Source of the DNA: a phage
DNA length: 64,000 nucleotides
Strand: one strand, 5' to 3'
Assembly: GCA_024683775.1 (NCBI GenBank)
Contig: GCA_024683775.1_4106.1
In this document: piece by piece, positions 23,575-53,868 of the stretch
Position numbering within the stretch: position 1 is the first letter of the stretch
Layout: every line of letters starts with the position of its first letter
Translations under genes and position numbers: made by a program
The notes under the pieces: model-generated
What the model was told of the DNA's origin: nothing
The model's input: only the letters and a program-made list of their open reading frames with translations
The model's database searches: none

Positions 23575-23802
23575 ATGACAAATACTTTTAAGTACTACCT
23601 CAATACTCTAAATGAACTAGAGTACGCGAAGTTTCTCGCGGATAGTTCGTGGCTAATTGAGCTAAAAACACATAACAGTACTGGATGTAACCTTATGCTG
23701 AACAATGCACTTGATACCCTTGTAGTGAGTATTTTACACAGCACCATCTGCGGGGATAGCAATAAACAATTATCAAAAATCTTAGTACTGGTAGCTCTAT
23801 GA
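23575..23802 (+). CDS. small hypothetical protein (75 aa), first gene of small-gene array
   Basis: ORF with AAGGAG SD; downstream genes overlap or abut. Confidence 0.6.
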   Translation: MTNTFKYYLNTLNELEYAKFLADSSWLIELKTHNSTGCNLMLNNALDTLVVSILHSTICGDSNKQLSKILVLVAL

Positions 23803-24011
23803 ACACTATGAACATTGAACAGTACTACATTGATGCACTACCAACAAAAGGTCTACGAGAAAGCCTACTGTATACACAAAATAATTATATAAACTTCAAA
23901 CATTGTCCTAAACTCTTGAACTCGTACAGGAATAATAAAATAAGAAATGCTGTACAAGGGGTAGAAAGTATGCAATACTATTACATCCTAACCCTTTTAA
24001 TCGAGCACTAA
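23799..24011 (+). CDS. small hypothetical protein (70 aa); paralog of 24210
   Basis: ATGA start/stop overlap; N-term MNTMNIEQYYIDALP similar to 24210 MKTMNIHQYYLDILP. Confidence 0.6.
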   Translation: MNTMNIEQYYIDALPTKGLRESLLYTQNNYINFKHCPKLLNSYRNNKIRNAVQGVESMQYYYILTLLIEH

Positions 24012-24012
24012 T

Positions 24013-24198
24013 ATGTATAAAGAATTCTACTGTAGTAAGCTGCACAAACAATACAGAGATTCATTTCCCAATGAACCTATGGATATGAATAGTCCCTTTT
24101 ATAAATTTGACTTCAGACTGGAGACACGTTATGCAATAGAACATCAATTTCCTGAAACTAAGTACTTATCTATCATGAACCTCATCTTTAAGTTCTAA
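24013..24198 (+). CDS. small hypothetical protein (61 aa)
   Basis: ORF 1 nt after previous stop; N-term MYKEFY. Confidence 0.55.
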   Translation: MYKEFYCSKLHKQYRDSFPNEPMDMNSPFYKFDFRLETRYAIEHQFPETKYLSIMNLIFKF

Positions 24199-24209
24199 AA
24201 GAGTACTAT

Positions 24210-24422
24210 ATGAAAACTATGAACATACACCAGTACTACTTAGATATTCTCCCTAAAGATGTACAGTTCATCCTTAAACAAGAATACAGTACTTTAAAAA
24301 ACCTTAAAAGAACCGCACCGAATGTATTAATCCTGCACCAAGAAAATGTAGTTGATAATATTCTACAAGGTGTACCAGGGACCGAGTACTTTAACATAAT
24401 AAGGCTAATTACATTACCATGA
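24210..24422 (+). CDS. small hypothetical protein (70 aa); paralog of 23799
   Basis: Sequence similarity to 23799 ORF. Confidence 0.6.
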   Translation: MKTMNIHQYYLDILPKDVQFILKQEYSTLKNLKRTAPNVLILHQENVVDNILQGVPGTEYFNIIRLITLP

Positions 24423-24604
24423 ATCATATATTATACTATTACCAAAATCTATCCGACAGGGACAAGTACACCCACAACTCCAATGTATGGTACTACAAAC
24501 GCGGTAGTATAAGAGACAAACAACATTACTTCTGTATTGCTATAAAAGAAGCACTAACAACTAAGTACACGTACAGAGCAGTACTGAAACTTATTGATAT
24601 GTAA
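24419..24604 (+). CDS. small hypothetical protein, C-terminus YRAVLKLIDM (subfamily A)
   Basis: ATGA overlap with previous gene; conserved C-terminal motif. Confidence 0.6.
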   Translation: MNHILYYYQNLSDRDKYTHNSNVWYYKRGSIRDKQHYFCIAIKEALTTKYTYRAVLKLIDM

Positions 24605-24614
24605 AGAGAATACT

Positions 24615-24797
24615 ATGAGCATTGAATTGTACTTAAGTAAATTACAGCCTGGCGATAGATTCATCTACAATAAGTTCGAATTCAACTACAAGAACGGGAG
24701 CAACAAATATCGTCGAGGATACCTATATACAAGCACAAGAGATGCACAAAACGAAAAGTACACATACAGAGAAGTACTTAAACTAATCTCTATTTGA
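24615..24797 (+). CDS. small hypothetical protein, C-terminus YTYREVLKLISI (subfamily A)
   Basis: Start moved to ATG 24615 (tracked ORF begins at TTG); conserved C-terminus. Confidence 0.6.
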   Translation: MSIELYLSKLQPGDRFIYNKFEFNYKNGSNKYRRGYLYTSTRDAQNEKYTYREVLKLISI

Positions 24798-24805
24798 GGT
24801 AATAT

Positions 24806-24991
24806 ATGAATACATTTGAGTACTATACAAATAAACTATCTATGCCTGAAAGATCTCATCTCTATGTGTGGAGAAATGCGTATAAAAGCGGCAATAAACT
24901 TATACAAAGAAATTCCCTTACAGTGTGTACAAATTTAATTAAAGCAGAGTACCGCACATATATTGAAGTACTCAAACTGATAGCAATATAA
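24806..24991 (+). CDS. small hypothetical protein, C-terminus YIEVLKLIAI (subfamily A)
   Basis: 61-aa ORF; conserved C-terminus. Confidence 0.6.
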   Translation: MNTFEYYTNKLSMPERSHLYVWRNAYKSGNKLIQRNSLTVCTNLIKAEYRTYIEVLKLIAI

Positions 24992-24999
24992 GGTACTCT

Positions 25000-25179
25000 A
25001 TGCAAGAATTCTATATCTATAACCTCCAGCACAAAGATAGATACAACTATAATAAATTCCAAAGGTACTACACAGTCGGGAACAAAAGAGATAAAAAACG
25101 TTATCTACTCTCGTGTACAGTAGAAGCACAAAACGAAAAGTACACGTACAGAGAAGTACTTAAACTAATCTTAATCTAA
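25000..25179 (+). CDS. small hypothetical protein (59 aa), C-terminus YTYREVLKLILI (subfamily A)
   Basis: ORF below the 60-aa track cutoff, found by reading the sequence (ATG 25000, TAA 25177-79). Confidence 0.55.
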   Translation: MQEFYIYNLQHKDRYNYNKFQRYYTVGNKRDKKRYLLSCTVEAQNEKYTYREVLKLILI

Positions 25180-25186
25180 GGTAGAC

Positions 25187-25375
25187 ATGAACACTTTTGA
25201 GTACTACTTCAATAAACTAAACCACATAGAACAAAGTATGCACAACTCATTTATTCAGCACCATCAATCATCTGCACATGGAATTAAAAATATATCGATT
25301 GAGATTATCACTACCCGTGTACTGTCATCTGAACGTTATATGTATATTGATGTACTGAAACTCATCTCTATGTAA
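25187..25375 (+). CDS. small hypothetical protein, C-terminus YIDVLKLISM (subfamily A)
   Basis: 62-aa ORF; conserved C-terminus. Confidence 0.6.
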   Translation: MNTFEYYFNKLNHIEQSMHNSFIQHHQSSAHGIKNISIEIITTRVLSSERYMYIDVLKLISM

Positions 25376-25383
25376 GGAATAAT

Positions 25384-25563
25384 ATGCAAGAATACTATAT
25401 AGAACACATAAGCATTAAAGACCGTTTCATGTACGACACCTTCGTGAAGTACTACAACCTGGCAACTAATAGTACTAAAAATATTAATCTCAATAGCTGC
25501 ATTCATCACGCACTAACAAAAGATAATCCCTTCAGGGAAATCCTCGCTCTCGCATCTGTATAA
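25384..25563 (+). CDS. small hypothetical protein (59 aa), MQEYYIEH..
   Basis: ORF below track cutoff found by reading (ATG 25384, TAA 25561-63); N-terminus resembles 25000 ORF. Confidence 0.5.
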   Translation: MQEYYIEHISIKDRFMYDTFVKYYNLATNSTKNINLNSCIHHALTKDNPFREILALASV

Positions 25564-25574
25564 AGGAAAACCAA

Positions 25575-26234
25575 ATGAAACTTAATGCACACAGCAAACA
25601 ATACCTTAAGCACTTTAAATACCTCAACAGTATTCAAGCAGAATCTTTTACACCAGCATATACGTATCACCCAAATGTACTAAAGAAACGAAATAAAAAG
25701 AAAAAATCCAGAAATGTTCTCGTATCTAAGAACCTCAAATCGTACTTGAAGAAAAATAGTATAGCTCTTGCTTTTATTAATATCTATAATACTGATTTAA
25801 AAGTATTGAGTACTAATACCAGCACAAAAGCACTAAAGAATGCATCTATCTATATACACATTGATAATATCCCGTGCACTATAATTCTATCTTTCGGGAA
25901 TGTATACTTCTTCGGGAATTGTAATAGCACCCATGATATCAGTACTGCACAATTCCAAATCGGCGATATGTACTGCATGGGTTCAGAAAAAATACACGAT
26001 AACATGCACTTCTTCCAAAAGCAACGTACTAACGAAACTGATACAGTACTGCAATTCCTCAAAGAACTAGAACACAAAGAATTATCCGAGGAAGAAGAAT
26101 TCATGTACAGTACTGTAATCGATAATCCAGGACTCTATAAAAACGCGTACAAACTAACAAAACATGTACAGGAACTTATCAGTACTGATAAGAAATTTCA
26201 TCACCTCATTACGTATATTTCAAACTATGTATAA
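25575..26234 (+). CDS. hypothetical protein (219 aa), lysine-rich N-terminal region, C-terminal EEEEFMYSTVIDNP motif (EE-FQ family outlier)
   Basis: ORF with SD AAAGGAAAA; motif shared with 2164 and the 55.6-64 kb family. Confidence 0.65.
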   Translation: MKLNAHSKQYLKHFKYLNSIQAESFTPAYTYHPNVLKKRNKKKKSRNVLVSKNLKSYLKKNSIALAFINIYNTDLKVLSTNTSTKALKNASIYIHIDNIPCTIILSFGNVYFFGNCNSTHDISTAQFQIGDMYCMGSEKIHDNMHFFQKQRTNETDTVLQFLKELEHKELSEEEEFMYSTVIDNPGLYKNAYKLTKHVQELISTDKKFHHLITYISNYV

Positions 26235-26409
26235 AGAATACTACAAAGATAAAATCCCAATGCATCTACAACACCATATACCAAACGTTGCATTGGGTAT
26301 CAAAGATCACGCAAAGATAATGTTCCAACAATGTACTAAGTACACGCTCATATACGATGATAATCCATATATGCTGTACTACGTAGTAATGCTAACATTC
26401 AGGTACTAA
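26227..26409 (+). CDS. small hypothetical protein, MYKEYY... C-term LTFRY (subfamily B)
   Basis: Start at ATG 26227 overlapping previous stop; family N- and C-terminal motifs. Confidence 0.55.
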   Translation: MYKEYYKDKIPMHLQHHIPNVALGIKDHAKIMFQQCTKYTLIYDDNPYMLYYVVMLTFRY

Positions 26410-26410
26410 T

Positions 26411-26590
26411 ATGAATACTTATAAAGAATTCTACCTCTCGTACCTTAATTCCGATATAGTAACATCCAATACATTCAGTACTAAAATTATCTATAATGAA
26501 GTAATGAAAGAATGTATTAAAGGTGCTATTAACCCTAAAGATACGTATGACTTGTACTATGCAGTACTAACCCTTGTTTTCACGAAATAA
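26411..26590 (+). CDS. small hypothetical protein (59 aa), MNTYKEFY.. (subfamily B)
   Basis: ORF below track cutoff found by reading (ATG 26411, TAA 26588-90). Confidence 0.5.
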   Translation: MNTYKEFYLSYLNSDIVTSNTFSTKIIYNEVMKECIKGAINPKDTYDLYYAVLTLVFTK

Positions 26591-26598
26591 CACATAAT

Positions 26599-26790
26599 AT
26601 GAATAACCACAAAGAATACTACATAGAGAAACTCCCAATGTATCTCCAACACCTTGTACCAACAAAACAATTGAGTATAGAAAAAGACTACGAAAAAGAC
26701 TATTTCATTAAGTGCACTAAATCCTCGATAGATATTGAGGACTATAATAGAGTACTGTATCACATCCTTTTACTAATATATAAGTACTAA
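26599..26790 (+). CDS. small hypothetical protein, MNNHKEYY... LLIYKY (subfamily B)
   Basis: 63-aa ORF with family motifs. Confidence 0.6.
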   Translation: MNNHKEYYIEKLPMYLQHLVPTKQLSIEKDYEKDYFIKCTKSSIDIEDYNRVLYHILLLIYKY

Positions 26791-26791
26791 T

Positions 26792-26980
26792 ATGAATAAC
26801 CACAAAGAATACTACACACAATTTCTCCCCAGTATATTTGAACACTACGCCAGATATAAAGTCCCCCTGGATAACGATTTGGCAGTACTGGGATTCAATA
26901 ACTGCATAGAACGAAGTATAGAAAATAGTAGTAGCTATGACCAGCTATATAACACTATCCTACTTATATTCAGGTACTAA
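26792..26980 (+). CDS. small hypothetical protein, MNNHKEYY... LLIFRY (subfamily B)
   Basis: 62-aa ORF with family motifs. Confidence 0.6.
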   Translation: MNNHKEYYTQFLPSIFEHYARYKVPLDNDLAVLGFNNCIERSIENSSSYDQLYNTILLIFRY

Positions 26981-26981
26981 T

Positions 26982-27170
26982 ATGCATAAAGAATACTACA
27001 CAAAATATTTCCCAATGTACCTCAGTACTAATCTATTAGATAAACCTCGCGGTATCAATGCTCAAAACGATAAAGTGTACTTTACTATGTGCACTAAAGC
27101 ATGTATACTAGATTTTGATAGCTATCATCGAGTACTGTATCATACACTGTACCTAGCTTTCGTGTACTAA
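26982..27170 (+). CDS. small hypothetical protein, MHKEYY... LAFVY (subfamily B)
   Basis: Start at ATG 26982 right after previous stop (tracked ORF extends upstream into previous gene). Confidence 0.6.
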   Translation: MHKEYYTKYFPMYLSTNLLDKPRGINAQNDKVYFTMCTKACILDFDSYHRVLYHTLYLAFVY

Positions 27171-27180
27171 AGAGGCCAAT

Positions 27181-27387
27181 ATGAACGAACAGAAAGAATT
27201 TTACACCAAACACCTCAGTGCATCAGAACAAATGTTTCTAAGGAGTGTATCACCTTTAAGTTTAGATACACCACACGCCAGAGATTGCTTTAATAATTGT
27301 ATACGTATTACTCTAGAAGCTTTAGAAAACAATAACAAAAATATTCAATACTCAGGCGTAATGGGACTAATATTCTTCTATGAATAA
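27181..27387 (+). CDS. small hypothetical protein, MNEQKEFY.. (subfamily B); paralog of 27761
   Basis: 68-aa ORF; HLSASEQMFLRS vs HLSPTEQMFLRT in 27761. Confidence 0.6.
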   Translation: MNEQKEFYTKHLSASEQMFLRSVSPLSLDTPHARDCFNNCIRITLEALENNNKNIQYSGVMGLIFFYE

Positions 27388-27568
27388 CAAAGAATTCTAC
27401 TTAAACCATCTGGAACTAAACTCCCAAATGCTTATACCACTAAACCCAATAGATATCAAGGATAAGAAAAATACCAAACAATTCCACTACCACACACTAT
27501 GTGCTATCAACCCAGATTATAATACATATAAACTGTACTACATTCTCGCCCTAATATATAGGTACTGA
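27380..27568 (+). CDS. small hypothetical protein, MNNKEFY... LIYRY (subfamily B)
   Basis: 62-aa ORF overlapping previous by 8 nt. Confidence 0.6.
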   Translation: MNNKEFYLNHLELNSQMLIPLNPIDIKDKKNTKQFHYHTLCAINPDYNTYKLYYILALIYRY

Positions 27569-27569
27569 T

Positions 27570-27755
27570 ATGCATAGAGAATACTATATACAATTTGTTA
27601 AAGGGAACTACAAACACGCCGTCCCCGTAAACCCCTTAAATTCTAATGACCCAAGTACTATATTCTTGTTCCATGACGCAATACGTACAGTACTCAATAC
27701 TAAAGATGAACAGGTGCAGTACGTATTCTTACTATTACTTATATACAGACACTAA
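27570..27755 (+). CDS. small hypothetical protein, MHREYY... LIYRH (subfamily B)
   Basis: 61-aa ORF. Confidence 0.6.
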   Translation: MHREYYIQFVKGNYKHAVPVNPLNSNDPSTIFLFHDAIRTVLNTKDEQVQYVFLLLLIYRH

Positions 27756-27760
27756 CTAAT

Positions 27761-27970
27761 ATGAATAAAGAACATAAAGAATTCTATTCCAAACACCTCA
27801 GCCCCACAGAACAAATGTTTCTAAGGACTACTGCACCTTTAAGTACTGATACTTATTTCGGCAGAGTATGCTACAATAATTGTATTCAAATGACTTTAAA
27901 CGCAAACGACAATAATAACAGTACTAATATGTACTCCGGCATCATAGGTATACTATTCCTATATGAATAA
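27761..27970 (+). CDS. small hypothetical protein, MNKEHKEFY.. (subfamily B)
   Basis: 69-aa ORF; paralog of 27181. Confidence 0.6.
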   Translation: MNKEHKEFYSKHLSPTEQMFLRTTAPLSTDTYFGRVCYNNCIQMTLNANDNNNSTNMYSGIIGILFLYE

Positions 27971-28154
27971 AGAACATAAAGATTTCTATATAAGTAAACT
28001 AAAAGAAAACGAACAAGCATGGGTTAACAATTTAATCCCCCTGGCAATGACTCAATACGAATTTAATATGTGTACAAAGATTGTTTTAACTACTAATGAT
28101 ATCTCTAATACGTACTACTTCCTATTAAGAGTACTATATGGTACTTTGAAATAA
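27963..28154 (+). CDS. small hypothetical protein, MNKEHKDFY.. (subfamily B)
   Basis: 63-aa ORF. Confidence 0.6.
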   Translation: MNKEHKDFYISKLKENEQAWVNNLIPLAMTQYEFNMCTKIVLTTNDISNTYYFLLRVLYGTLK

Positions 28155-28165
28155 TAAGGTATACT

Positions 28166-28372
28166 ATGCAGAACATAAAAAACTATAAAGAGTACTATAT
28201 AAGTAAACTACCACCGACTGACCAAGCATGGATTAGATCTATAATAGTACTGGCATTTAATAGATATGCATTTAACAGATGTACCGAGATTGCTATAGAC
28301 CCTTATAATATTAAAGAGAATGTACAGCATAATCAGTACTACTATATGTTAATGCTTATATATAGGAAGTAA
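28166..28372 (+). CDS. small hypothetical protein, ...KEYY... LIYRK (subfamily B), last of array
   Basis: 68-aa ORF. Confidence 0.6.
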   Translation: MQNIKNYKEYYISKLPPTDQAWIRSIIVLAFNRYAFNRCTEIAIDPYNIKENVQHNQYYYMLMLIYRK

Positions 28373-28497
28373 TTCAACATATAGACAGGGGAAGCTCCGC
28401 AGGGAAAGCATTGGACAGGCTTTAACAATTAGAAGAATTGTTAAAATTCAGCCTGGACAAATGCGATCACTAGGATTCTCCCCAGGCTAAACCCCGT

Positions 28498-28570
28498 AAT
28501 CATATGTAGTCATAAGTAATCATATATAAACATTTAAGTAATCATTTATAATCACTACTGTGATTAGTAT
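28498..28570. repeat. iteron-like short direct repeats (GTAATCAT units)
   Basis: AAGTAATCAT repeated at least 3 times within ~60 bp, in a region with no ORFs. Confidence 0.4.
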
Positions 28571-29399
28571 TGAGTACTAGAGTGTAATAGAGTACAGGAA
28601 TGTGCTCGTTTAATCAAGAACGTAGCAGTACTGCCCCAAAAGTATTCAGTACTGAAGGTGTCGATATGCCACTAAGTAGGCAGAGGAAGTCTGCCGTACT
28701 TTGTAGTTTCCAAGCTCCTTTTCCATTTTGCAAATTACATCAAATGTAATCAAAAGTAATCACGCAATGATTAGTACTGAATTATTACTTTCACCTTAAT
28801 TTCAATTACCCTTTTACCCTTCGGGGTAAAATTCAATTACCCCTTGAGGCTCCAGCAAAAAGTTGGTTAGTACTCCATCCTAAATCTCGATCCTAAAAAT
28901 TTTGGAGTACCTATGAAATAAAAGTTGGATCTTCGAAAGTTGAAATTTACGTTGGGACGTTTATGATTTGTGGGATATAATGATGTTTGTAGTCGGGTAG
29001 TTCTCAAGAATATCAGTACTGAATGGTGAAAGAAAGTTATTGACATTATGATTCAGTACTGTATAATGTTCTACATAGGGTGATGAGTTGCTGCGAACAA
29101 TTCATTTACTCTACCTCCTGTCGTGAGACAGTACAGAAAAGATAGTTCCTCCTGTGGTGGTACATCTTTTTGAACCTCATATGAAAATCGTAATAACAGT
29201 ACTGATATTAACAGAATGGTATCAGTACTGATTTTAATCTAAAGCATTATGCCACCAGCACAAGCTGGTGGATTCCCTCTAACAGTATTCAGTACTACAT
29301 GATAGTCTTCATCCTCCTAGGGTAACATAGTGAGGGCTATGATGGCAGTACTGAATACTCCCTTTCAAAAGATAGATCTATGGTATAGTACTGACGGAT

Positions 29400-29590
29400 T
29401 TTGGGTGTAGTTACCCTGGATGGATTTTGGGCGTAGATATGTCTAGCCCTCCAGAAGTCTGGAAGTAAAGATGGCTATCCATCTAGACGGCTAAACGGCT
29501 AGATTTCTGGATGGCTGGATGGCTAGACGTTTGGACGGCTAAACTGCTAGATGGTTACACGTCTGGAAGTATAGACGGCTAAATCAAAAT
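29400..29590. repeat. cluster of short direct repeats (GGATTTTGGG[TC]GTAG; ACGGCTAAA; GGCTAGA; TCTGGAAGTA)
   Basis: Multiple 7-15 bp units repeated 2-4 times each; non-coding context. Confidence 0.5.
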
Positions 29591-30201
29591 TTTATTTTGT
29601 TTTTTCCAATAGTTCCCCTACCGCGTGGGGATAGTTTCCCCGCAGTATCTGGCGTTAGATTTTTCTGAATCTGGAATCATTATCTTATAAACTGGGGGCA
29701 ATGTCAACGACCTGGACGGATATTTTTAAAAATTTTTTCAGTACTGAATTTTGGGCGTAACTATGCACCCGGTGGGCTTGAGTCTTTCTCGACTTGATGG
29801 AACTATTATACAGTACTGAAAAAATAAAGCAATACCCTGGAAGCAAAAAAGTTTTAATTAATTTGCTTGCTATCCTGGGCCGGACTATGGTACTATATTT
29901 CAGTACTGAGAAAGTGCGTTTACCTGCTAGGGTGCGGGAGTGTATCCTTTTTTTATATCTTGAATTTTGGGCGGATCTTCCCACCCCCTGGGGTATCCGC
30001 TTTCTCGCGTCTATGTAGTAATTATACGCTTTTTCAGGATCAAGTCAATACCTAAAAACAAAATAATTGAAAATAATTTAACGCGTTTAAACGGCCTGTA
30101 AAGCCCTGGAATGATTGGAATGGTGCAAATGTATAGCTTATGTGTATTAATGCGTTAGAATGCGTCTGAGGCCGTTTTACGGGGTATAGGGATGATTTAG
30201 T

Positions 30202-30355
30202 GGATTGATTCAGTACTGAATAATAGTACTCCTATATAGAAAGATAGTTCCCCTGGATTGATTCAGTACTGAATAATAGTACTCCTATATAGAAAGATAG
30301 TTCCCCTGGATTGATTCAGTACTGAATAATAGTTCCCCTATATAGAAAGAAAACT
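30202..30355. repeat. three tandem direct repeats of 53 bp
   Basis: Unit GGATTGATTCAGTACTGAATAATAGTACTCCTATATAGAAAGATAGTTCCCCT at 30202, 30255 and (degenerate) 30308. Confidence 0.8.
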
Positions 30356-30381
30356 ATTTTAAAAGTATTTGTAGAAAGTAC

Positions 30382-30409
30382 TTGCACCGTACTGATAAAA
30401 GCGTATAAT
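30382..30409 (+). promoter_or_regulatory. early promoter (conserved type)
   Basis: AGTACTTGCAC -35-like (TTGCAC 30382-87), 16-bp spacer, TATAAT 30404-09, then GTTTTACATC start region. Confidence 0.65.
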
Positions 30410-30423: not shown

Positions 30424-30440
30424 GCGGGAACACTTCCCGC
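30424..30440 (+). promoter_or_regulatory. conserved GC-rich 5'UTR stem-loop
   Basis: GCGGGA-ACACT-TCCCGC immediately downstream of promoter start region and upstream of SD/ATG 30465. Confidence 0.6.
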
Positions 30441-30464: not shown

Positions 30465-30827
30465 ATGGCGACTCAAATCAATAAAATTATTGCTAACCTG
30501 GTTAACTTCCGCGACGAGATGAAAGATCTTCCGGCGGCAACGGTTAAAACTCACATTGACGCATACCGCGAACTGATTAAAATGCTGCCGCTTAAGCGTG
30601 AACAATACGCCGCTACCGTGATGCTTGATGCGATGATCCATAAGATGATCTCAAATGATTTGACGATGGTTTATCAGTATATGGGTGAAAATTTCGCGGT
30701 GTGCAGTAAGCCAGTACCAGGGATGGCAACAACTGAGGAATTGCACGGCTTAAACTTAAAACAAGATGCATGGGATAATATGCCTCGTTTCCTGGTATGG
30801 GCTGACAGTGGCAAAATTTACAAATAA
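30465..30827 (+). CDS. hypothetical early protein (120 aa)
   Basis: Start at ATG 30465; the tracked N-terminal extension MFYIESG... is translation of the promoter -10/hairpin. Confidence 0.7.
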   Translation: MATQINKIIANLVNFRDEMKDLPAATVKTHIDAYRELIKMLPLKREQYAATVMLDAMIHKMISNDLTMVYQYMGENFAVCSKPVPGMATTEELHGLNLKQDAWDNMPRFLVWADSGKIYK

Positions 30828-31829: not shown

Positions 31830-32257
31830 GCAGTTTACAAATCTTTACAATTGCCGGTATTGACTTATTTTGTCAGTACTGGCATAATGTATTCATTGGC
31901 AGATAAGCCGTAGCCCATAGGGTGCGGGAGTGTATCTATAGAAAAATTAGTTTAGTATAGTTACAATTGTGCACCCGGTGGGTTAGCTGTTGTCATGGGG
32001 TATATTATGCCAGTACTTGATAATGCTGTCAATACTTTTTTTTTACTATTCAGTACTGAAAACTATTTTTAAAAAGTACTTGTAAACTATGTTTAAAGGC
32101 GTATAATGTTTTACATCAGGACGGGGAACGAAATAAGTAACTTCCCGTTAAGTAGCCCAGGAGTAAGGCACACGAAAAACTCCCCTGATAAAATAGTTTG
32201 ACAATAGAAAGTAAAAGCGTATAATACTTACATCAACTACTGAATGAGGGTTACAAA

Positions 32258-33860: not shown

Positions 33861-34068
33861 CAGTACTGAATCATTTAATAGACGGATCTCGGCACCCGGT
33901 GGGTTAGTGACTGTTTCGTCTTGATGTAGTAATTATGCCAGTACTGGATGCACTTGTCAACAACTATTTTTCAAATACTTTTTATTAAAATACTTGCAAT
34001 TAGTTTTTAAACGCGTATAATGTTTTGCATAGGGGGAGCGGTTCCCCTGGTAACTAAGGAATAATAAA

Positions 34069-34305: not shown

Positions 34306-34389
34306 AGTACTTGATAATAGTTTTTAGTACTGTATAATATTTTACATCGCAAGGGGGAGCGGTTCCCCCTGGTAACTAAGGATAATCAA

Positions 34390-37492: not shown

Positions 37493-37702
37493 ATGCTTAC
37501 TGTACAGGATAAGATCGACATCTTAAAGGTTAATATGTATGTGATTGATGCAGTACCTGGTAAAGTATTTGCATACGATGACAGTACTGTAAGCGATTTC
37601 TACTATAGCCAGGCCGTGGGGGATCTTTCTGTACAGTCGGTTATTGAAAACGTAGTTAATGCAGCGTATGAGCATTTACTTTCAAATAGTACTTGCAATT
37701 AG
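37493..37702 (+). CDS. hypothetical early protein (69 aa)
   Basis: ORF 5 nt after previous stop; 3' end overlaps next promoter. Confidence 0.55.
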   Translation: MLTVQDKIDILKVNMYVIDAVPGKVFAYDDSTVSDFYYSQAVGDLSVQSVIENVVNAAYEHLLSNSTCN

Positions 37703-37720
37703 TTTTTAAACGCGTATAAT
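37693..37720 (+). promoter_or_regulatory. early promoter (conserved type)
   Basis: TTGCAA 37693-98, spacer, TATAAT 37715-20, GTTTTACATG; stem-loop GGGGAGAAATGATTCTCCCC 37733-52. Confidence 0.65.
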
Positions 37721-40369: not shown

Positions 40370-40627
40370 ATGGCAGTAGGATACGCGAAAGACGGGGCCG
40401 AACAAGACGAGATTCACGCAGTGATTCAGGCAGCCGTTAACCACGCTAGAAAGCAAATTAACGCACAAAGAGAATCACTGGTACATTGCCTCGACTGCGG
40501 CGATAAAATCCCTGAGAATCGACGCCAGGCCGTTATAGGGTGCATGTATTGTATTACTTGCCAGGAGGATCATGATAGTACTTTTAAAAGAGATCCGCGT
40601 AATTGTTGGCATAGATCTATGAGATAA
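40370..40627 (+). CDS. TraR/DksA-like C4 zinc-finger protein
   Basis: C-x2-C-x17-C-x2-C (CLDCGDKIPENRRQAVIGCMYCITC) with the conserved IP.[AE]RR.A motif typical of TraR/DksA zinc fingers; SD GAGG. Confidence 0.6.
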   Translation: MAVGYAKDGAEQDEIHAVIQAAVNHARKQINAQRESLVHCLDCGDKIPENRRQAVIGCMYCITCQEDHDSTFKRDPRNCWHRSMR

Positions 40628-40690: not shown

Positions 40691-41047
40691 ATGGGAATAC
40701 AACATATCACGCGTACTACTGACAATGGCGAGATCACTGGTTATCAGGTACAGGGCAAAGTAGCACAATTGCAGTACTGGTTTGTTAAACGTGGAATCAT
40801 TGCACCGGATCTTGATTATGACCGTGTAGCGTTTATTGATTCTCTTTATGTTGATCCTGATAGTCGGGGCAATGGTGAAGGTAACGAATTAATGAATGCC
40901 TTTATTGATGCCGCCGATGATTCAGATTGTATCATCTTAGAATGCGATACGGGAGAAGATAACGCCTTTAATCTTAAAGAATGGTACGAAGGTTTCGGAT
41001 TCGAGGTACTGATCGATAGTGAATATCCTATCATGATTTTATCATAG
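40691..41047 (+). CDS. hypothetical protein with weak GNAT-acetyltransferase-like motif
   Basis: VDPDSRGNGEGNELM resembles the GNAT motif A ([QR]-x-x-G-x-[GA]); TTGACA..TATAAT promoter at 40633-60. Confidence 0.4.
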   Translation: MGIQHITRTTDNGEITGYQVQGKVAQLQYWFVKRGIIAPDLDYDRVAFIDSLYVDPDSRGNGEGNELMNAFIDAADDSDCIILECDTGEDNAFNLKEWYEGFGFEVLIDSEYPIMILS

Positions 41048-41314: not shown

Positions 41315-41399
41315 AAAAGTACTGGACAATAGATTATAGTACTGTATAATAGTTTACATGAAGGGGAGAAATGATTCTCCCCACTAAGAGGAAAGAAAA

Positions 41400-43301: not shown

Positions 43302-43400
43302 TAGAATCCATTTAAAGTACTATTTGACATTGCCCAGATAGTACTTTATAATAGACTCTAACTTGTAGTACTAATTAACTTAACTAATAGGATGTACACC

Positions 43401-43796
43401 ATGATTACTAAATTCTTCGCTACCCGTGAACAAGCTCGCATCGTTGCCCGTGAGGAAGGTGAAACATTTAAAGACATGGGTAAAGATTCTCCTACTGGTA
43501 AACGCTGGGCGGTACAGTTCAAAGAGATCTCTGATATTGTGAATTCACCTGAGCCTGTACTTACAGCAGCAGAACTAAAGCAAGCTCAAGAACTGGCTGA
43601 AGTACTGAACGCTCAAGATGACTTCTTGAAAGGTTCTGATATTGAAGTTACAGTTAACGCAAATGCATGGACTCACGCGGATCACCTGGCAAACCTTAAG
43701 CGTCCAAGTGAACTGATTCGCAACCAGAAAGAGATCCGACACGACCGTAAGGGTAATCGTGTAACAGTATACAGTAAACGCCGCCAGGTTATCTAA
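43401..43796 (+). CDS. hypothetical early protein (131 aa); paralog of 31245
   Basis: Start chosen at ATG 43401 (AGGA SD 9 nt upstream); similarity to 31245 ORF. Confidence 0.65.
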   Translation: MITKFFATREQARIVAREEGETFKDMGKDSPTGKRWAVQFKEISDIVNSPEPVLTAAELKQAQELAEVLNAQDDFLKGSDIEVTVNANAWTHADHLANLKRPSELIRNQKEIRHDRKGNRVTVYSKRRQVI

Positions 43797-43818
43797 TAAC
43801 TTGCAGTACTAACAACAC

Positions 43819-43843
43819 GGCGGGATCAGTTCCCGCCTTTTTT
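43819..43843 (+). terminator. rho-independent terminator
   Basis: GGCGGGA-TCAGT-TCCCGCC followed by TTTTTTA. Confidence 0.7.
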
Positions 43844-43857
43844 ATAGGACAAACAAA

Positions 43858-44112
43858 ATGATTAAGGTTCAACTATATAAAGATAACATCTTACGGGTAC
43901 ACTATAAAGCACCTCAGAGAATCATCACAAAGGCCGTACAGCTTGCTAATGAGTTTATTAATGGTAACCTATTACCTAGGAAGTTAAGCAACGGGAAACT
44001 GCGTGTAATCGACGTGGACACTAACAACAGGATAGTAATCGAGAACACAGGAAAGATAAACCTTTATGAGCATCAACAATACAATAAGAAAATAAAACTA
44101 ATATCACGTTGA
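43858..44112 (+). CDS. hypothetical protein (84 aa)
   Basis: ORF with SD AGGA. Confidence 0.55.
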   Translation: MIKVQLYKDNILRVHYKAPQRIITKAVQLANEFINGNLLPRKLSNGKLRVIDVDTNNRIVIENTGKINLYEHQQYNKKIKLISR

Positions 44113-49652: not shown

Positions 49653-49850
49653 ATGCGTATTTTAACTCAAGAAGAGCACAACCACACACTCATATCCAAC
49701 ATGGCATATATCCTACATATGTCACATATCCGTGGTATTGCATATAAGCGTGAATTGGTTATGAAACTTTTCATAGGAACTAACTATCAAGAAAAGTATA
49801 TCGAACTATACTTACAAGAATTACGAAGGGACATAAAAGGTAGACTATGA
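49653..49850 (+). CDS. LGTNYQ-family small protein, member 1
   Basis: 65-aa ORF; SD GGAG; core FIGTNYQEKY. Confidence 0.65.
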   Translation: MRILTQEEHNHTLISNMAYILHMSHIRGIAYKRELVMKLFIGTNYQEKYIELYLQELRRDIKGRL

Positions 49851-50047
49851 AAATGCGTATTTTAAATAAAGAAGATTATCAAGAACTGTTACGTAAAAAC
49901 ATGGTAAAGATTTATAACACAGACACAAACTTAGAACGAATTGAGTTATACCTTTTGATTACATTGGGAACAAGCTATCAGGGAAGATGGGTGATTCAAT
50001 ATATGGATGCATTGAAAAATGAAATATTATCCACGAGGAAACAATGA
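49847..50047 (+). CDS. LGTNYQ-family small protein, member 2
   Basis: ATGA overlap with previous stop; core LGTSYQGRW. Confidence 0.65.
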   Translation: MKMRILNKEDYQELLRKNMVKIYNTDTNLERIELYLLITLGTSYQGRWVIQYMDALKNEILSTRKQ

Positions 50048-50253
50048 AAACTATAACACGAACCCAATCATACGGTCTTATCTTGAGATACATGGACTTA
50101 ATGTTGGATATCAGAAAAGACCTTCCTAAAACTGCAATTGAAGTTGCAAGAGCAGAGATCCGCATGTTGGCTGTACTGAACACAAACCATCAGGAAGAGT
50201 ATGTTGACGATTGGATTCGATTTTTAATAGAAGATATTAAGAGGAAACTATGA
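50044..50253 (+). CDS. LGTNYQ-family small protein, member 3
   Basis: ATGA overlap; core VLNTNHQEEY. Confidence 0.65.
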   Translation: MKTITRTQSYGLILRYMDLMLDIRKDLPKTAIEVARAEIRMLAVLNTNHQEEYVDDWIRFLIEDIKRKL

Positions 50254-50462
50254 TTTTTTTAACACCAGAAGAATATAAGATACGTTTTGTTTCTGTCCAG
50301 AATAAAATCTTAATTATATACAATTCAAATGCAGACCTTAACTTATCAAGGGTATTAGAAAAAGATTTACTTATGGGTGCATTTTTGGATACAGACTTTC
50401 AGGTGTATTATGTAGGGGAATACTTAATTGCACTCCAGAATTACATTAAGAGTAAACTATGA
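50250..50462 (+). CDS. LGTNYQ-family small protein, member 4
   Basis: ATGA overlap; core FLDTDFQVYY; C-term ALQNYIKSKL. Confidence 0.65.
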   Translation: MIFLTPEEYKIRFVSVQNKILIIYNSNADLNLSRVLEKDLLMGAFLDTDFQVYYVGEYLIALQNYIKSKL

Positions 50463-50671
50463 ATAGCATTAACTCAAATCTATATACCGAACGCGTCGCT
50501 GCAAGACAACTTGAAATTCTCATAGTATATGAAGAGACTGATGATTTGAACTTAGCATTAGTATTGGAAAATGATATACTATTGGGTGCATTCCTCGGCA
50601 CAGATTATCAGGAGCACTTCTTGAATGAGTATATAATTGCACTCCAGAAATACATTAAGAGCAAACTATGA
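50459..50671 (+). CDS. LGTNYQ-family small protein, member 5
   Basis: ATGA overlap; core FLGTDYQEHF; close paralog of member 4. Confidence 0.65.
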   Translation: MNSINSNLYTERVAARQLEILIVYEETDDLNLALVLENDILLGAFLGTDYQEHFLNEYIIALQKYIKSKL

Positions 50672-50886
50672 AACATTTAAGTAATTCCGAGAAGAATAAA
50701 ATTATCATTGCTGCAATAAACAAATATTTTACACTTCCTCACACAGAAGGTTTATGTGTAAGGGAACACAGGATAAACACCACCGATATACGCATGATGG
50801 CTGTACTGGGGACGAACTTTCAGGAAGAGTATGTTGTTGCACACATAGTTGCCCTCACTGATCTAATAAGGGACAAATGTAAATGA
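50668..50886 (+). CDS. LGTNYQ-family small protein, member 6
   Basis: ATGA overlap; core VLGTNFQEEY. Confidence 0.65.
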   Translation: MKHLSNSEKNKIIIAAINKYFTLPHTEGLCVREHRINTTDIRMMAVLGTNFQEEYVVAHIVALTDLIRDKCK

Positions 50887-51140
50887 AACACTTAACACTA
50901 GATGAATATGAAACTATAGTCCGTAAACTAACCCCTATAGCAAGGATAGTCTACGATGACCCCAGCCTTACATGGAACCAAATGCGAGCTAAAGTTAATG
51001 AGCTATGGTTGCTGTACTTTATGGGGACTCAATATCAAGATAAGTTTTGCACAGAATATGTCGAACAATTAATGAATGTTATACAGGATAAACTAGATGA
51101 TTATTGGCTCACAAAACATGAAGACTTTATCAGGAGTTGA
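50883..51140 (+). CDS. LGTNYQ-family small protein, member 7
   Basis: ATGA overlap; core FMGTQYQDKF. Confidence 0.6.
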   Translation: MKHLTLDEYETIVRKLTPIARIVYDDPSLTWNQMRAKVNELWLLYFMGTQYQDKFCTEYVEQLMNVIQDKLDDYWLTKHEDFIRS

Positions 51141-51369
51141 GTATCAAACTGCCCTATTCTCTTTAATCCATACCCTTAGAAAAAACAATGCCTTACATGG
51201 TGCACCTGAAGTGGATGTTATCAACGGTGAACTTTATCTTATGAAATTCATTGGAACAAACTATCAAGATCTGTTCATTCAACGATACTTATCAGCATTA
51301 AGAAACCAAATCCAATATAAAACCATCAAGGCCAAAAAAGAATGGAATAAACAATGCGACACAGACTAA
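51118..51369 (+). CDS. LGTNYQ-family small protein, member 8
   Basis: Start chosen at ATG 51118 (tracked ORF starts 51097); core FIGTNYQDLF. Confidence 0.6.
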   Translation: MKTLSGVEYQTALFSLIHTLRKNNALHGAPEVDVINGELYLMKFIGTNYQDLFIQRYLSALRNQIQYKTIKAKKEWNKQCDTD

Positions 51370-51605
51370 ATCACAAAATGTATTGTAAACTATTACAGAC
51401 ACTGGCACAGAAACACTATGACACGGTATCTGGAATATTACCCTATGATATCATGCGTTTACTTCACTGTGAGGCCGAGATGCTTGTACTGATGACAGGC
51501 ACTGATAAAAAAGCAATTGTCAAATCAATAGATATGTTCATCGAAGCACAATGTCAACACATTAGAACCGAGATATGGAGGCGAGAGAATGATAACCCTA
51601 AATGA
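51354..51605 (+). CDS. LGTNYQ-family small protein, member 9 (divergent core LMTGTDKK)
   Basis: ORF in array; start uncertain. Confidence 0.5.
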   Translation: MRHRLNHKMYCKLLQTLAQKHYDTVSGILPYDIMRLLHCEAEMLVLMTGTDKKAIVKSIDMFIEAQCQHIRTEIWRRENDNPK

Positions 51606-51804
51606 GTTTCAGTATCATTGGAGATTACAAGCTATAAGAAGGAAAGTTGTTAGTATTTCTTTAGACAAGTCTATTGCACAAGAGGACAAATGTGTTATAA
51701 TAGCTGAAATGAAGTTGGGTGCTTTCGTAGGGACAAACTATCAAAACATCTACACTGACGTATTGTTAAGTGCCTTACGTAACAAGGTGATATCAAAAGA
51801 ATGA
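51589..51804 (+). CDS. LGTNYQ-family small protein, member 10
   Basis: core FVGTNYQNIY. Confidence 0.65.
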   Translation: MITLNEFQYHWRLQAIRRKVVSISLDKSIAQEDKCVIIAEMKLGAFVGTNYQNIYTDVLLSALRNKVISKE

Positions 51805-52019
51805 GAAAATTACAAGGCTTTGAATACATCAGACTCCTGAAAACATGCACCAGCAGAAGGAAAATCTTATCAAGCAACAAGAGCATCCCTGCCAACCTAA
51901 AACATGCAATGATAGCTGAACTCTATGTAGAAGCACTCATAGGGACAAACTATCAACAAATGTATATAGACATGTGGGTTGATGCATTAGTCAAGGAGAT
52001 CAAAAGTAAATGCAAATGA
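51801..52019 (+). CDS. LGTNYQ-family small protein, member 11
   Basis: ATGA overlap; core LIGTNYQQMY. Confidence 0.65.
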   Translation: MRKLQGFEYIRLLKTCTSRRKILSSNKSIPANLKHAMIAELYVEALIGTNYQQMYIDMWVDALVKEIKSKCK

Positions 52020-52228
52020 TTAATTTAAGTAAAGATGAATATTATGATCGTCTTGCAAAAACTTATCCAGCACGTAACGCCGTTTATAATAGTAACATTA
52101 TTGAACGCTCAAAGAAGTTGATTGTAGTAAATGAGATTAAGATGCTTTCAGTCTTAGGAACAAACTATCAAGAGAATGCTGTACTGTTGTTAATTGATGC
52201 CCTCAAGAGAGAGATACAAAGTAAATGA
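52010..52228 (+). CDS. LGTNYQ-family small protein, member 12
   Basis: core VLGTNYQENA. Confidence 0.65.
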   Translation: MQMINLSKDEYYDRLAKTYPARNAVYNSNIIERSKKLIVVNEIKMLSVLGTNYQENAVLLLIDALKREIQSK

Positions 52229-52461
52229 TTCATTTATCTTACCATGATTATCAAAAACGTTTAAATGCATCAAGGGATATAAGGATTCAAATCTTCAATA
52301 ACAAAAAATTGAAACCTGATAACAGAAGAATCAAAATGATAGAAGCAGAGTTATGCAACTTCCTGGGGACGAACTATCAGGCAGGTAAGGTAAAAAACTA
52401 TCTTAGAGAACTAATGAATTGTATCGAAAATAAATGCGATGCTTTGGAGAATAAAAAATGA
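52225..52461 (+). CDS. LGTNYQ-family small protein, member 13
   Basis: ATGA overlap; core FLGTNYQAGK. Confidence 0.65.
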   Translation: MIHLSYHDYQKRLNASRDIRIQIFNNKKLKPDNRRIKMIEAELCNFLGTNYQAGKVKNYLRELMNCIENKCDALENKK

Positions 52462-52715
52462 TCAATTTAAGTAAAGATGAATATACCGAGCGTATGACAA
52501 AAATTACACACAAACGTAATACAATCTATCACAACCAAAAAATTCAACACAGTAAGAAAATGATTATGATGCGTGAGTTAAAGATGGGTGTATTCTTGGG
52601 AACAAACTATCAAGAGCCAGAAGTAAATCGATTAATTGATGAGTTACTATTGGAAATCAAAGGTAAGCTGTACTTTTATCAAATGACCCGTCCACTAAGG
52701 TGTACTGATCGATGA
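52458..52715 (+). CDS. LGTNYQ-family small protein, member 14
   Basis: ATGA overlap; core FLGTNYQEPE; N-term MINLSKDEY like member 12. Confidence 0.65.
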   Translation: MINLSKDEYTERMTKITHKRNTIYHNQKIQHSKKMIMMRELKMGVFLGTNYQEPEVNRLIDELLLEIKGKLYFYQMTRPLRCTDR

Positions 52716-52954
52716 ATATTGTGAATAACATCAGATTAGCAGAAAGATTTGATAGAATTGGGGAAGCTATGAGAAGATACGATAAAGAATATGGTCATTT
52801 AAGCTTTACGATAGAAAAGAGATATGAACTTGAAGCAGAGTTTAAAATGCAGTTCCTTTTAGGTACACAGTATCAAAACCAATATGTAGAAAAATGGATT
52901 TCACTTTTAATCCAGACAATTTACGTAAGGAACATTAAATGCAAAATGAAATGA
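52712..52954 (+). CDS. LGTNYQ-family small protein, member 15
   Basis: ATGA overlap; core LLGTQYQNQY. Confidence 0.65.
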   Translation: MNIVNNIRLAERFDRIGEAMRRYDKEYGHLSFTIEKRYELEAEFKMQFLLGTQYQNQYVEKWISLLIQTIYVRNIKCKMK

Positions 52955-53175
52955 TATACTTAACACATGATGAGTTAACAGAAAGACTAGATAAATCCAA
53001 AAAACTTACAAAATATCTTCCACACAACCCAAACCAAACCCCAGCAGAAAGGAGTGCAGAAGTTTTATTCCAAACATTACCATACCTTCTTGGAACTGAT
53101 AGGCAAGAGTATCATATTGAACGTATAATTAAATATCTCAAAATTACTATTATGGAAAAAGTAAATGCAAAGTGA
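52939..53175 (+). CDS. LGTNYQ-family small protein, member 16
   Basis: core LLGTDRQEYH; N-term MQNEMIYLTHDEL. Confidence 0.6.
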   Translation: MQNEMIYLTHDELTERLDKSKKLTKYLPHNPNQTPAERSAEVLFQTLPYLLGTDRQEYHIERIIKYLKITIMEKVNAK

Positions 53176-53395
53176 AATGATATACTTAACGAATGAAGAA
53201 TTTCAAGAGAAGATGTTAAAAGCCAATAACATTACTCTTAAGTTCGTTCCAAATCAATCAATATATGAAATGTCTGCGAATGTATTGTTTCAGAAGCTAC
53301 CATACGTTCTTGGAACTGATAAACAAGAATTTATGGTTCAAAATATGATTGAACATCTTGTAATGAGTATTAAGGAAAAAGTAAATGCAAAATGA
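53165..53395 (+). CDS. LGTNYQ-family small protein, member 17
   Basis: core VLGTDKQEFM; N-term MQSEMIYLTNEEF; start could be the second ATG (53177). Confidence 0.6.
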   Translation: MQSEMIYLTNEEFQEKMLKANNITLKFVPNQSIYEMSANVLFQKLPYVLGTDKQEFMVQNMIEHLVMSIKEKVNAK

Positions 53396-53642
53396 AATGA
53401 AATACTTAACAGACGATGAGTTAAAAGAACGATTAATTAAATCCAGAAAACTTACAAATCAACTTCCAAACGACACAAACAAGTCACCTGCCGAAAGGAG
53501 TGCAGAAGTTTTATACATTCAACTCATGTACTTTCTTGGAACTGACAGACAAGAGTATTACATTGAAAGTATGCTTCGATATCTTAAATTCTCTATAAAG
53601 GAAAAGATACATGCTCAAGAATTTAAAAATCCTAACAGTTAA
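53385..53642 (+). CDS. LGTNYQ-family small protein, member 18
   Basis: core FLGTDRQEYY; paralog of member 16. Confidence 0.6.
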   Translation: MQNEMKYLTDDELKERLIKSRKLTNQLPNDTNKSPAERSAEVLYIQLMYFLGTDRQEYYIESMLRYLKFSIKEKIHAQEFKNPNS

Positions 53643-53868
53643 TGAATATCATAAGATTGTAATGAAAACTAATAGTGCAATTTCTAAAAAATCAAACCCA
53701 AAGTACATACTGGAACACACATTTGAAGAACGTCAATTAGCTTTAGTTGAAGCAAAACTTCTTGCACTCCTAGGAACAAACTATCAGGAAGAATACATCA
53801 GAAAACTAATATACCTTTTAACTAAACACATCAGGAAAAGAAAAAAGCATGAAGCACTTGACAGATGA
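53611..53868 (+). CDS. LGTNYQ-family small protein, member 19
   Basis: core LLGTNYQEEY. Confidence 0.6.
   Translation: MLKNLKILTVNEYHKIVMKTNSAISKKSNPKYILEHTFEERQLALVEAKLLALLGTNYQEEYIRKLIYLLTKHIRKRKKHEALDR

Follow-up and report, generated by a model that had tools for sequence, protein, structure and literature searches.

A variable 53-bp tandem array related to early-promoter cassettes in the terminal repeat of an Asteriusvirus jumbo coliphage, and the AGTACT word it carries

The 53-bp array and its surroundings

The DNA analysed here, a single stretch of 64,000 nucleotides referred to as the window, belongs to an Asteriusvirus jumbo coliphage and is 95-98% identical to phages of that genus such as PBECO4, slurp01 and fEgEco12. 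By alignment, window position 28675 corresponds to position 1 of four records (fEgEco12, CRJP21, E9.1 and BF17). The ends of fEgEco12 have been confirmed by PhageTerm and restriction digests, with a direct terminal repeat (DTR) of 20,993 bp (PMC13070987), and the record of vB_Ec-M-J annotates a DTR of 21,525 bp. The DTR in the window contains ~35 early promoter cassettes, 40 copies of CAGTACTG and 143 copies of AGTACT. The array lies 1.5 kb inside it, where a non-coding leader of 1.7 kb ends, and directly precedes P1, the first promoter with an ORF behind it. The mapped features are as follows.

22000-49555, no strand: AGTACT-rich domain, from word density per 2-kb bin
28675-49555, plus strand: DTR, ~21 kb; left end equals position 1 of the relatives, right boundary mapped
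29799-29825, minus strand: inverted copy of the extended motif (CAGTACTG-TATAAT-AGTTCC)
29889-29909: second inverted copy of the extended motif
30201-30253, plus strand: 53-bp unit 1, the reference copy (Tandem Repeats Finder, gap-free repeat search)
30254-30306, plus strand: 53-bp unit 2, 100% identical to unit 1 (gap-free repeat search)
30307-30359, plus strand: 53-bp unit 3, partial, 83% identical to unit 1 (sequence, gap-free repeat search)
30208-30221, 30261-30274 and 30314-30327, no strand: perfect 14-bp palindrome ATTCAGTACTGAAT, one per unit
30211-30218: CAGTACTG core of the first 14-bp palindrome
30225-30230 and 30278-30283: the other AGTACT word in units 1 and 2, offset by 13 bp from the first (nested 13-bp sub-repeat)
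30232-30239, and again from 30285 and 30338, no strand: 8-bp palindrome CTATATAG
30377-30409, plus strand: P1 cassette, with AGTACT at 30377-30382, -35 TTGCAC at 30382-30387 and -10 TATAAT at 30404-30409
30424-30440, plus strand: P1 leader stem-loop GCGGGAA-CAC-TTCCCGC
30465-30827, plus strand: first ORF after P1

Three tandem 53-bp direct repeats had been reported here in a preliminary description of the DNA, and they are real: Tandem Repeats Finder returned a period of 53 with 2.8 copies, 97% matches and a score of 286 at 30201-30350, and the gap-free repeat search recovered head-to-tail copies at the two identities to unit 1 given above. The unit starts given at the time (30202, 30255 and 30308) were right apart from their register, which is shifted by one base to 30201, 30254 and 30307. 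Unit 3 is identical to the other units over its first 26 nt and then carries AGTTCCCC where the others have AGTACTCC; the UP element of the following promoter takes the place of its 3' third. The palindrome previously described in each unit is present, since TTCAGTACTGAA occurs in all three, and it is longer than noted, extending to the 14 bp of ATTCAGTACTGAAT. These palindromes lie 53 bp apart from centre to centre, or ~5 helical turns (5.05 at 10.5 bp per turn), a spacing that would place the sites on one face of the helix. The TATATAG also described is found in every unit, at 30233, 30286 and 30339, as part of the 8-bp palindrome CTATATAG. Within the 64-kb window, TATATAGAAAG does not occur outside the array units. 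Rfam at gathering thresholds gave no RNA family match anywhere in the 64-kb window, and when the array was folded, as RNA or as DNA, the z-scores were only modest (-2.25 and -2.9) and came from palindromes of different units pairing with one another.

In P1, AGTACT overlaps the -35 hexamer TTGCAC, and the spacer holds a degenerate word, CCGTACTG. A consensus scan located a perfect TTGACA-N16-TATAAT sigma-70 promoter at 29040-29067, 1.3 kb upstream of P1, together with two leftward consensus promoters in the leader, at 30048 and 29707. The earlier designation of the P1 cassette (30382/30404-30409) as the first early promoter is therefore correct in the sense that it is the first to have an ORF behind it, but not in the sense that no consensus promoter precedes it. 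In the related phage PA5oct, the DTR genes are early genes transcribed by the host RNA polymerase (RNAP) from sigma-70-type promoters (PMC7318152); by analogy, early host-RNAP transcription of the DTR genes is assumed here.

Relation to promoter cassettes and variation among relatives

The ~35 DTR cassettes are near-identical, and each stands before a small ORF. Their layout is AAAGTA(C/T)TTG(A/C)(C/A)A, N16, TATAAT, GTTTTACATC, a stem-loop (GGGGAGAAnnGTTCTCCCC), a Shine-Dalgarno sequence (SD) and ATG, with the stem-loop downstream of the -10 element. Those near the array fit the sigma-70 pattern, with -35 and -10 hexamers 16-18 bp apart, and ~14-15 cassettes have (C/T)AGTACTG abutting the -10 hexamer. 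A multiple alignment was made of the three array units and seven DTR cassettes; neither the units nor five of the seven cassettes required a gap, and the invariant columns take in AGTACTG, ATAAT and the hairpin 3' arm. The collinearity of units 1 and 2 with the cassettes runs from the palindrome across the -10 position, where AATAAT replaces TATAAT, as far as the 3' hairpin arm ATAGTTCCCC. Both units lack the UP/-35 portion and the 5' hairpin arm, and on this alignment the array units are therefore shown to be truncated early-promoter cassettes, or stubs. Unit 3 shares the palindrome and the -10 position and diverges after TATATAGAAAG into the P1 UP element. Its order is CAGTACTG-AATAAT-AGTTCCCC-TATATAGAAAG, for comparison with ...GGGGAATAGTTCCCCACTATATAAGAGGA in the cassette at 30842, so that by sequence it looks like a cassette minus the segment between two AATAGTT direct repeats. 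Elsewhere in the DTR, Tandem Repeats Finder detected five more short tandem duplications, of AGTACT or of promoter pieces.

The array was compared across 19 Asteriusvirus genomes, namely the window and 18 relatives. Copy number is polymorphic, with one, two or three units and nested 13-bp expansions: ph0011 and A4 have a single unit, most genomes have two, and the window, slurp01 and JNE01 have three, while in 121Q, TH47 and EJP2 the array is rearranged or shortened. The nested sub-repeat, AGTACTGAA[T/A][G/A]AT, is present in one to four copies and is expanded in TH47, JNE01, BF17 and vB_Ec-M-J. The left flank of the palindrome reads GATTC, GGTTGC or GATTGC, and AATGAT serves as the -10-like hexamer of the units in many relatives. 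Amid variable flanks, every unit of the 19 genomes keeps CAGTACTGAAT and TATATAGAAAGA without change, and the 8-bp palindrome CTATATAG is likewise the same in every unit. All 19 genomes keep at least one unit and two to seven AGTACT words in the array interval. Indels at the array and its neighbouring genes also differ between relatives.

A more distant comparison is offered by the Klebsiella phage fENko-Kae01, which belongs to another genus with ~29% ANI to fEgEco12 (PMC13070987). Its leader is collinear with that of the window in several blocks of 65-93% identity, and it holds no comparable tandem array, ~25 bp standing in place of the roughly 280-bp array stretch. As far as these genomes indicate, the repetition is recent, unstable and genus-specific, and it is clearly dispensable in itself, because ph0011 and A4 have one unit and fENko-Kae01 none. 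The preliminary description had named absence of the repeat from close relatives as an observation that would speak against it. This applies in part: one to three units are found in close relatives and none in the related genus, a pattern that speaks against the repetition itself being essential.

Distribution of the AGTACT word and signs of selection on it

The sequence at the centre of the units is strongly over-represented in the window. CAGTACTG occurs 56 times against 0.68 expected (roughly 80-fold), and 100 shuffles never gave more than two copies; TCAGTACTGA occurs 19 times against 0.6 expected. AGTACT itself is found 254 times, almost all from 22 to 49.5 kb, with 12-19 per 2 kb over 24-48 kb and fewer in the bins on either side (8 at 22-24 kb, 7 at 48-50 kb). 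Its density falls sharply at the right DTR boundary, and the window has none in 50-54 kb or 58-64 kb. The leader alone contains 13 palindrome sites. The 56 CAGTACTG sites have symmetric flanks, with T-rich sequence to the left and A-rich sequence to the right.

Within the cassettes, AGTACT occupies fixed registers. Counted from the first base of the -10 hexamer, it starts at -27 in 18 of 35 cassettes, where its last T is the first T of the -35 element, at -7/-8, abutting the -10 hexamer, in 15 of 35, and at -16/-17 in four of 35; ~30 of the 35 carry it in one of these three registers. Conversely, a -10-like hexamer adjoins CAGTACTG in only 16 of 112 site-orientations (4.9 expected), leaving 85% without one. 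The CAGTACTG palindrome is thus mostly an autonomous element, and its candidacy as an obligatory promoter element was rejected on the same count. In fENko-Kae01, the top enriched 8-mers of the DTR are AAGTACTT (23 sites) and CAGTACTG (13 sites), and AGTACT, set in the same promoter registers, occurs 122 times in the 19.7-kb DTR against 48 times in the following 20 kb. These counts show a word, AGTACT/CAGTACTG, that by sequence is confined to the terminal domain, linked to promoter registers and common to two genera. Full-text literature searches on the motif, on Asteriusvirus transcription and on RaK2/CBB promoters turned up no description of the array or the word, and the CBB promoters that have been listed lack AGTACT; as a domain word it appears to be new to the literature.

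Conservation of the word was assessed against related genomes, with the proviso that many intergenic words in promoters are conserved anyway. In the intergenic DTR, AGTACT has a mismatch rate of 0.053 against 121Q (other intergenic positions, 0.104; p = 7e-5) and of 0.036 against A4 (0.105; p = 6e-8), and at the leader sites five of 64 columns are variable versus 357 of 1462 elsewhere (p = 0.0014). The outer C/G of CAGTACTG and the in-ORF sites are no better conserved than background in 121Q and A4, so the long palindrome as such would seem to be under no per-site constraint. Coding regions were examined by synonymous-codon resampling with the codon usage of each block. The DTR ORFs contain 55 AGTACT against 10.4 ± 3.1 expected and the post-DTR control ORFs 11 against 5.7 ± 2.3; the 23.5-28.4 kb block before the DTR contains 35 against 9.7 ± 2.7, an excess of which part is supplied by recurring peptide motifs in paralogs, these motifs being written with rarer codons that create AGTACT. 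By these conservation and codon measures, AGTACT appears to be selected at the DNA level.

The word is probably a protein recognition site. Of the two ideas raised in the preliminary description, an array of protein-binding sites or an array of weak promoters, the former is the better supported, the word being over-represented, set in fixed registers, conserved in its intergenic core, favoured by codon choice and present in a second genus; the sites combine the dyad symmetry, over-representation and fixed position relative to promoter elements of an operator array. Pfam and PHROGs searches of the 101 window ORFs returned no HTH, RHH or other sequence-specific DNA-binding family, a relaxed-threshold Pfam search of the 19 ORFs shared with the fENko-Kae01 DTR and of ORF 30465-30827 returned no DNA-binding family, and a PDB sequence search with three conserved unknown proteins found no relatives. 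The screen covers 64 kb of a roughly 350-kb genome and may let small ORFans escape, and the reader of the word may be encoded elsewhere or by the host.

We consider it about evenly balanced that the array, an amplified cassette stub, provides a variable site cluster for a putative factor acting on the early promoters. In the mechanism we propose, replication or recombination slippage would have amplified a truncated early-promoter cassette in tandem, leaving two to seven AGTACT words upstream of P1, three of them here as perfect 14-bp palindromes. AGTACT would be the probable recognition site of a small DNA-binding factor, putatively dimeric because of the dyad symmetry of the word and most likely phage-encoded. 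Such a factor would act on the sigma-70 early promoters, and its most likely action is occlusion of the host RNAP, leading to early shut-off, because many of the sites lie in the spacer or over the -35 element. The array would then serve as a dosage-variable cluster of strong sites that loads or titrates the putative factor beside P1, and the units themselves would not be expected to fire as promoters.

A broader proposal, which we advance only tentatively, is that AGTACT (in its strong form TTCAGTACTGAA) is a domain word of the terminal early ~27 kb in Rak2-like jumbo phages of at least two genera, and that the putative factor treats this domain as a unit. Possible roles would include timed shut-off, recruitment of RNA polymerase to the entering DNA, and compaction or marking of the domain, with the 53-bp array as a copy-number-variable signal amplifier at the first gene.

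The main rival is that the array is a neutral minisatellite, a functionless by-product of slippage between near-identical cassettes in a leader that tolerates insertions, with palindromes simply inherited from the parent cassette. Genomes that are 90-99% identical differ in unit number (one to three), in nested 13-bp expansions and, independently, in flank variants, which fits this account, as do the roughly 280-bp array stretch missing from fENko-Kae01, the five other small tandem duplications of promoter pieces in the DTR and the degraded, slipped PeSL (promoter-early stem-loop) copies known from T4-type phages (PMC4122927). Against neutrality, 19 of 19 genomes keep at least one unit and at least two AGTACT, CAGTACTGAAT and TATATAGAAAGA stay invariant while their flanks vary, and all three window units have a perfect 14-bp palindrome at the cost of the -10 consensus (A for T); the apparent DNA-level selection on AGTACT in general also speaks against it. 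We regard it as unlikely, though a serious contender. The idea of weak promoters fares less well. The units would on this account be tandem, -35-independent promoters in which CAGTACTG with AATAAT, or TATATA, adds transcription into gene 1, fired by the host RNAP with a phage factor or by a phage-encoded sigma factor. They do descend from cassettes and keep a -10-like hexamer (5/6) at the cassette position, such hexamers adjoin the palindrome above chance (16 versus 4.9 expected), CAGTACTG followed by AAATAT stands without a -35 element 45-58 nt upstream of the minus-strand genes 17463 and 18709, and the genus encodes its own RpoD-like sigma factor. Yet no unit passes the sigma-70 consensus scan, the best -35 element matches at three of six positions, and there is no TG at -15/-14, the TG of ACTG abutting the hexamer at -14/-13 instead. 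AATAAT keeps A-11 and T-7 but lacks T-12, TATATA lacks T-7, and many relatives have AATGAT. The A that replaces the first T of the -10 element is, in all three window units, the base required by the 14-bp palindrome, which fits selection for the site over the promoter. Moreover, 85% of palindrome orientations have no -10-like neighbour, and the near absence of AGTACT from 50-54 and 58-64 kb argues against a general middle or late promoter element. We judge promoter activity of the units improbable. Literature searches found no transcriptome for any Asteriusvirus, nor binding data for the genus.

Explanations tied to the nearby genome end, with the repeats as replication-origin iterons or as a terminase recognition (pac/cosB-like) array, are very improbable. 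They would account for direct repeats of protein-site-like sequence followed by an AT-rich stretch, with a physical end 1.5 kb away, a cumulative GC skew minimum near 28.0-28.4 kb and two CAGTACTG sites 20-50 bp left of the cut position. But the AT-rich stretch is the P1 UP element, the window ORFs include no initiator family, and neither version explains the same word over 27 kb and in about 30 promoters, or the variable copy number. An iteron origin was rejected because no DnaA boxes (TTATNCACA) were found between 21 and 52 kb and the skew switch lies ~2 kb left of the array; a packaging signal was rejected because the left boundary is 1.5 kb away and the DTR boundaries at 28675 and 49555 share no motif, the right one having no nearby site. 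Scarcely credible is the proposal that the palindromes are sites for the host nucleoid-occlusion factor SlmA, which phage DNA would activate against FtsZ. TTCAGTACTGAA matches the SlmA site, GTGAGTACTCAC (PMC3020112), at positions 2, 4-9 and 11, including the AGTACT core. The SlmA half-site is G1 T2 R3 A4 G5 Y6, where the bases at positions 1, 2, 4 and 5 are strongly preferred, and mutagenesis revealed a strong dependence on G in position 1 and on a purine in position 3 (PMC3020112); the phage half-site, T1 T2 C3 A4 G5 T6, fails this published specificity at positions 1 and 3, and host SlmA was rejected as the reader on these grounds.

The array itself is a minor, variable feature of modest interest, and the AGTACT word that it exposes matters more. 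The word would be a simple cis-code that sets apart the early terminal-repeat domain of widespread 350-kb coliphages and of Klebsiella phages, a group that includes some therapy candidates. A 60-bp unit of the array, existing in three natural dosage variants, could be a ready probe for the factor that reads AGTACT, and the array may bear on how a jumbo phage dependent on the host RNAP turns off its early genes. If no such factor exists, the locus would document PeSL-like cassette slippage beyond the T4-type phages.

Comparison with known systems

The closest parallel is with the PeSL cassettes of T4-type phages, for which degraded copies and slippage have been described (PMC2839356, PMC4122927). 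Both are many near-identical modules of a sigma-70 early promoter and a stem-loop, placed between small ORFan genes in a plastic region and linked to indels between close relatives, and recombinational slippage is invoked in both cases to explain copies that are partial or multiplied. By its sequence, the array is a slipped promoter-cassette minisatellite that behaves like the degraded PeSL cassettes. The stem-loop lies upstream of the promoter, as a terminator, in PeSL (PMC4122927), whereas it lies downstream of the -10 element, in the 5' leader, in the DTR cassettes. The DTR cassettes differ further in filling a 21-kb direct terminal repeat and in carrying, at fixed registers, the palindromic AGTACT word, a feature that descriptions of PeSL do not include, and the array units differ in having no -35 element and only the 3' arm of the stem-loop, ATAGTTCCCC.

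Clusters of operators for small dimeric repressors include the lambda OR/OL triplets, the tandem met-boxes of MetJ (AGACGTCT) and the dispersed C1 operators of phage P1. Like these, the AGTACT sites are short palindromes, several per regulatory region, located over or beside the -35 and -10 elements, with extra sites away from promoters and an in-phase spacing compatible with cooperative binding. The 53-bp spacing of the array is much larger than that of operator triplets, and AGTACT is unlike ordinary operators in being enriched inside ORFs over 27 kb.

The nucleoid-occlusion palindromes, the SlmA SBS GTGAGTACTCAC and the Noc NBS ATTTCCCGGGAAAT (PMC3020112), resemble the phage word as 12-14-bp palindromes present in many copies within one replicon domain, the SBS having an AGTACT core; in the present case, that replicon is a phage genome, of which the early terminal region forms the domain. 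Iteron arrays are similar in being tandem direct repeats of protein-site-like sequence beside AT-rich DNA, but here there are no DnaA boxes and no recognised adjacent initiator gene, the word extends across the whole DTR, and copy number varies.

At the level of genome organization, SPO1 and T5 carry host-takeover modules in their terminal redundancies, with many strong early promoters. The arrangement in the window resembles that of SPO1, T5 and PA5oct (PMC7318152) in its long terminal repeats and small early genes, each with a strong host-RNAP promoter, and what sets it apart from the descriptions of those phages is the tandem array of cassette stubs and the AGTACT word.

Left boundary and leader of the direct terminal repeat

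Several sequence elements were located around the left physical end (window 28675) of the direct terminal repeat (DTR, right boundary 49555) and in its leader, the 1.7-kb non-coding stretch that precedes the first ORF:

28496-28551: 22-bp AT-rich tandem repeat, 2.7 copies, immediately left of the DTR boundary
28676-28695: GC-rich hairpin GGCAGAGGAAGTCTGCC, within the DTR, 4 nt from its left physical end
29395, 29421, 29745 and 29961: TGGATTTTGGGCG-like words
29482-29553: array with an 8-bp period, (CTnGAyGG)n, ~9 units, in the leader
30021-30048, minus strand: TTGACT-N16-TATAAT, a consensus promoter directed leftward, within the non-coding leader

Outside the left physical end, at a distance of 20-50 bp, are two sites of CAGTACTG. 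At 300-600 bp to the left of the DTR boundary, within 28000-28400, the GC skew changes abruptly from ~-0.2 to ~+0.1; the genes on either side of this switch are on the plus strand.

The leftward leader promoter, together with an inverted repeat of the GGGTGCGG...CCGCACCC type, is 77% conserved in comparison with the Klebsiella phage fENko-Kae01 (window 29928-30030; fENko-Kae01 1073-1177). The word TAGGGTGCGGGAGTGTATC is found at both 29928 and 31918, downstream of CATAAT-type promoters. These promoter, inverted-repeat and TAGGGTGCGGGAGTGTATC elements may represent small non-coding RNAs; a search of the whole window against Rfam gave no matches.

Duplications within and beside the DTR

Tandem duplication was observed at several scales. 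Among the cassettes, the early promoter modules that precede the small DTR ORFs, five short duplications (13-24 bp, ~2 copies each) involve pieces of the palindromic word AGTACT and the -35 and -10 elements, and in cassettes carrying both AGTACT words the distance from the -35 word to the -10 word is 20 bp. The duplicated segments are as follows:

32052-32097: short tandem duplication in a cassette
33973-34002: short tandem duplication in a cassette
34306-34343: short tandem duplication in a cassette
37677-37703: short tandem duplication in a cassette
41318-41356: short tandem duplication in a cassette

On both sides, the DTR is flanked by long, tightly packed runs of paralogous 60-85-aa ORFs without promoter cassettes, of which the left block (23575-28372) is rich in AGTACT and the right block (49653-58000) is free of it. 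One further duplication corresponds to two neighbouring paralogous ORFs of 112-113 aa:

55583-56274: 356-bp tandem duplication, two copies, 81% identical

Further left, the minus strand of 962-23470 encodes ~20 tandem paralogous ORFs (~360-450 aa) matching RCC1-like repeat families; genes of this type ('chromosome condensation regulator') differ strongly between two related phages.

Chi sites and early-region ORFs shared with fENko-Kae01

The DTR carries a strong excess of the Chi sequence of E. coli, GCTGGTGG, with 10 occurrences on the plus strand and 2 on the minus strand (~0.2 expected per strand):

29252-29271: inverted Chi pair (distance to the left physical end: 577 bp)
35786, 39760, 40269, 41219, 42118, 44481, 46386, 47965 and 48188, plus strand: Chi sites

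Given this orientation, RecBCD coming in from the right end would be attenuated, and at the left end a single Chi site would be correctly oriented against it. The pattern is repeated in the fENko-Kae01 DTR (484-503 plus 11 other plus-strand sites).

Early-region ORFs are also held in common with this phage:

40370-40627: ORF with a DksA/TraR C4 zinc finger (E=4e-9)
43858-44112: ORF with a ParE-like toxin domain (E=6e-11)

Ahead of the ParE-like ORF, a 134-aa ORF occupies the antitoxin position; the two lie within 43392-44112, and each is kept in the fENko-Kae01 DTR. The zinc-finger ORF, 70% identical to its fENko-Kae01 counterpart, could encode a binder of the RNA-polymerase secondary channel. 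In the Asteriusvirus relative 121Q, an annotated acetyltransferase gene comes after the zinc-finger gene; a GNAT acetyltransferase ORF is also present in the window, and it is probably the counterpart of that 121Q gene at 40691-41047.
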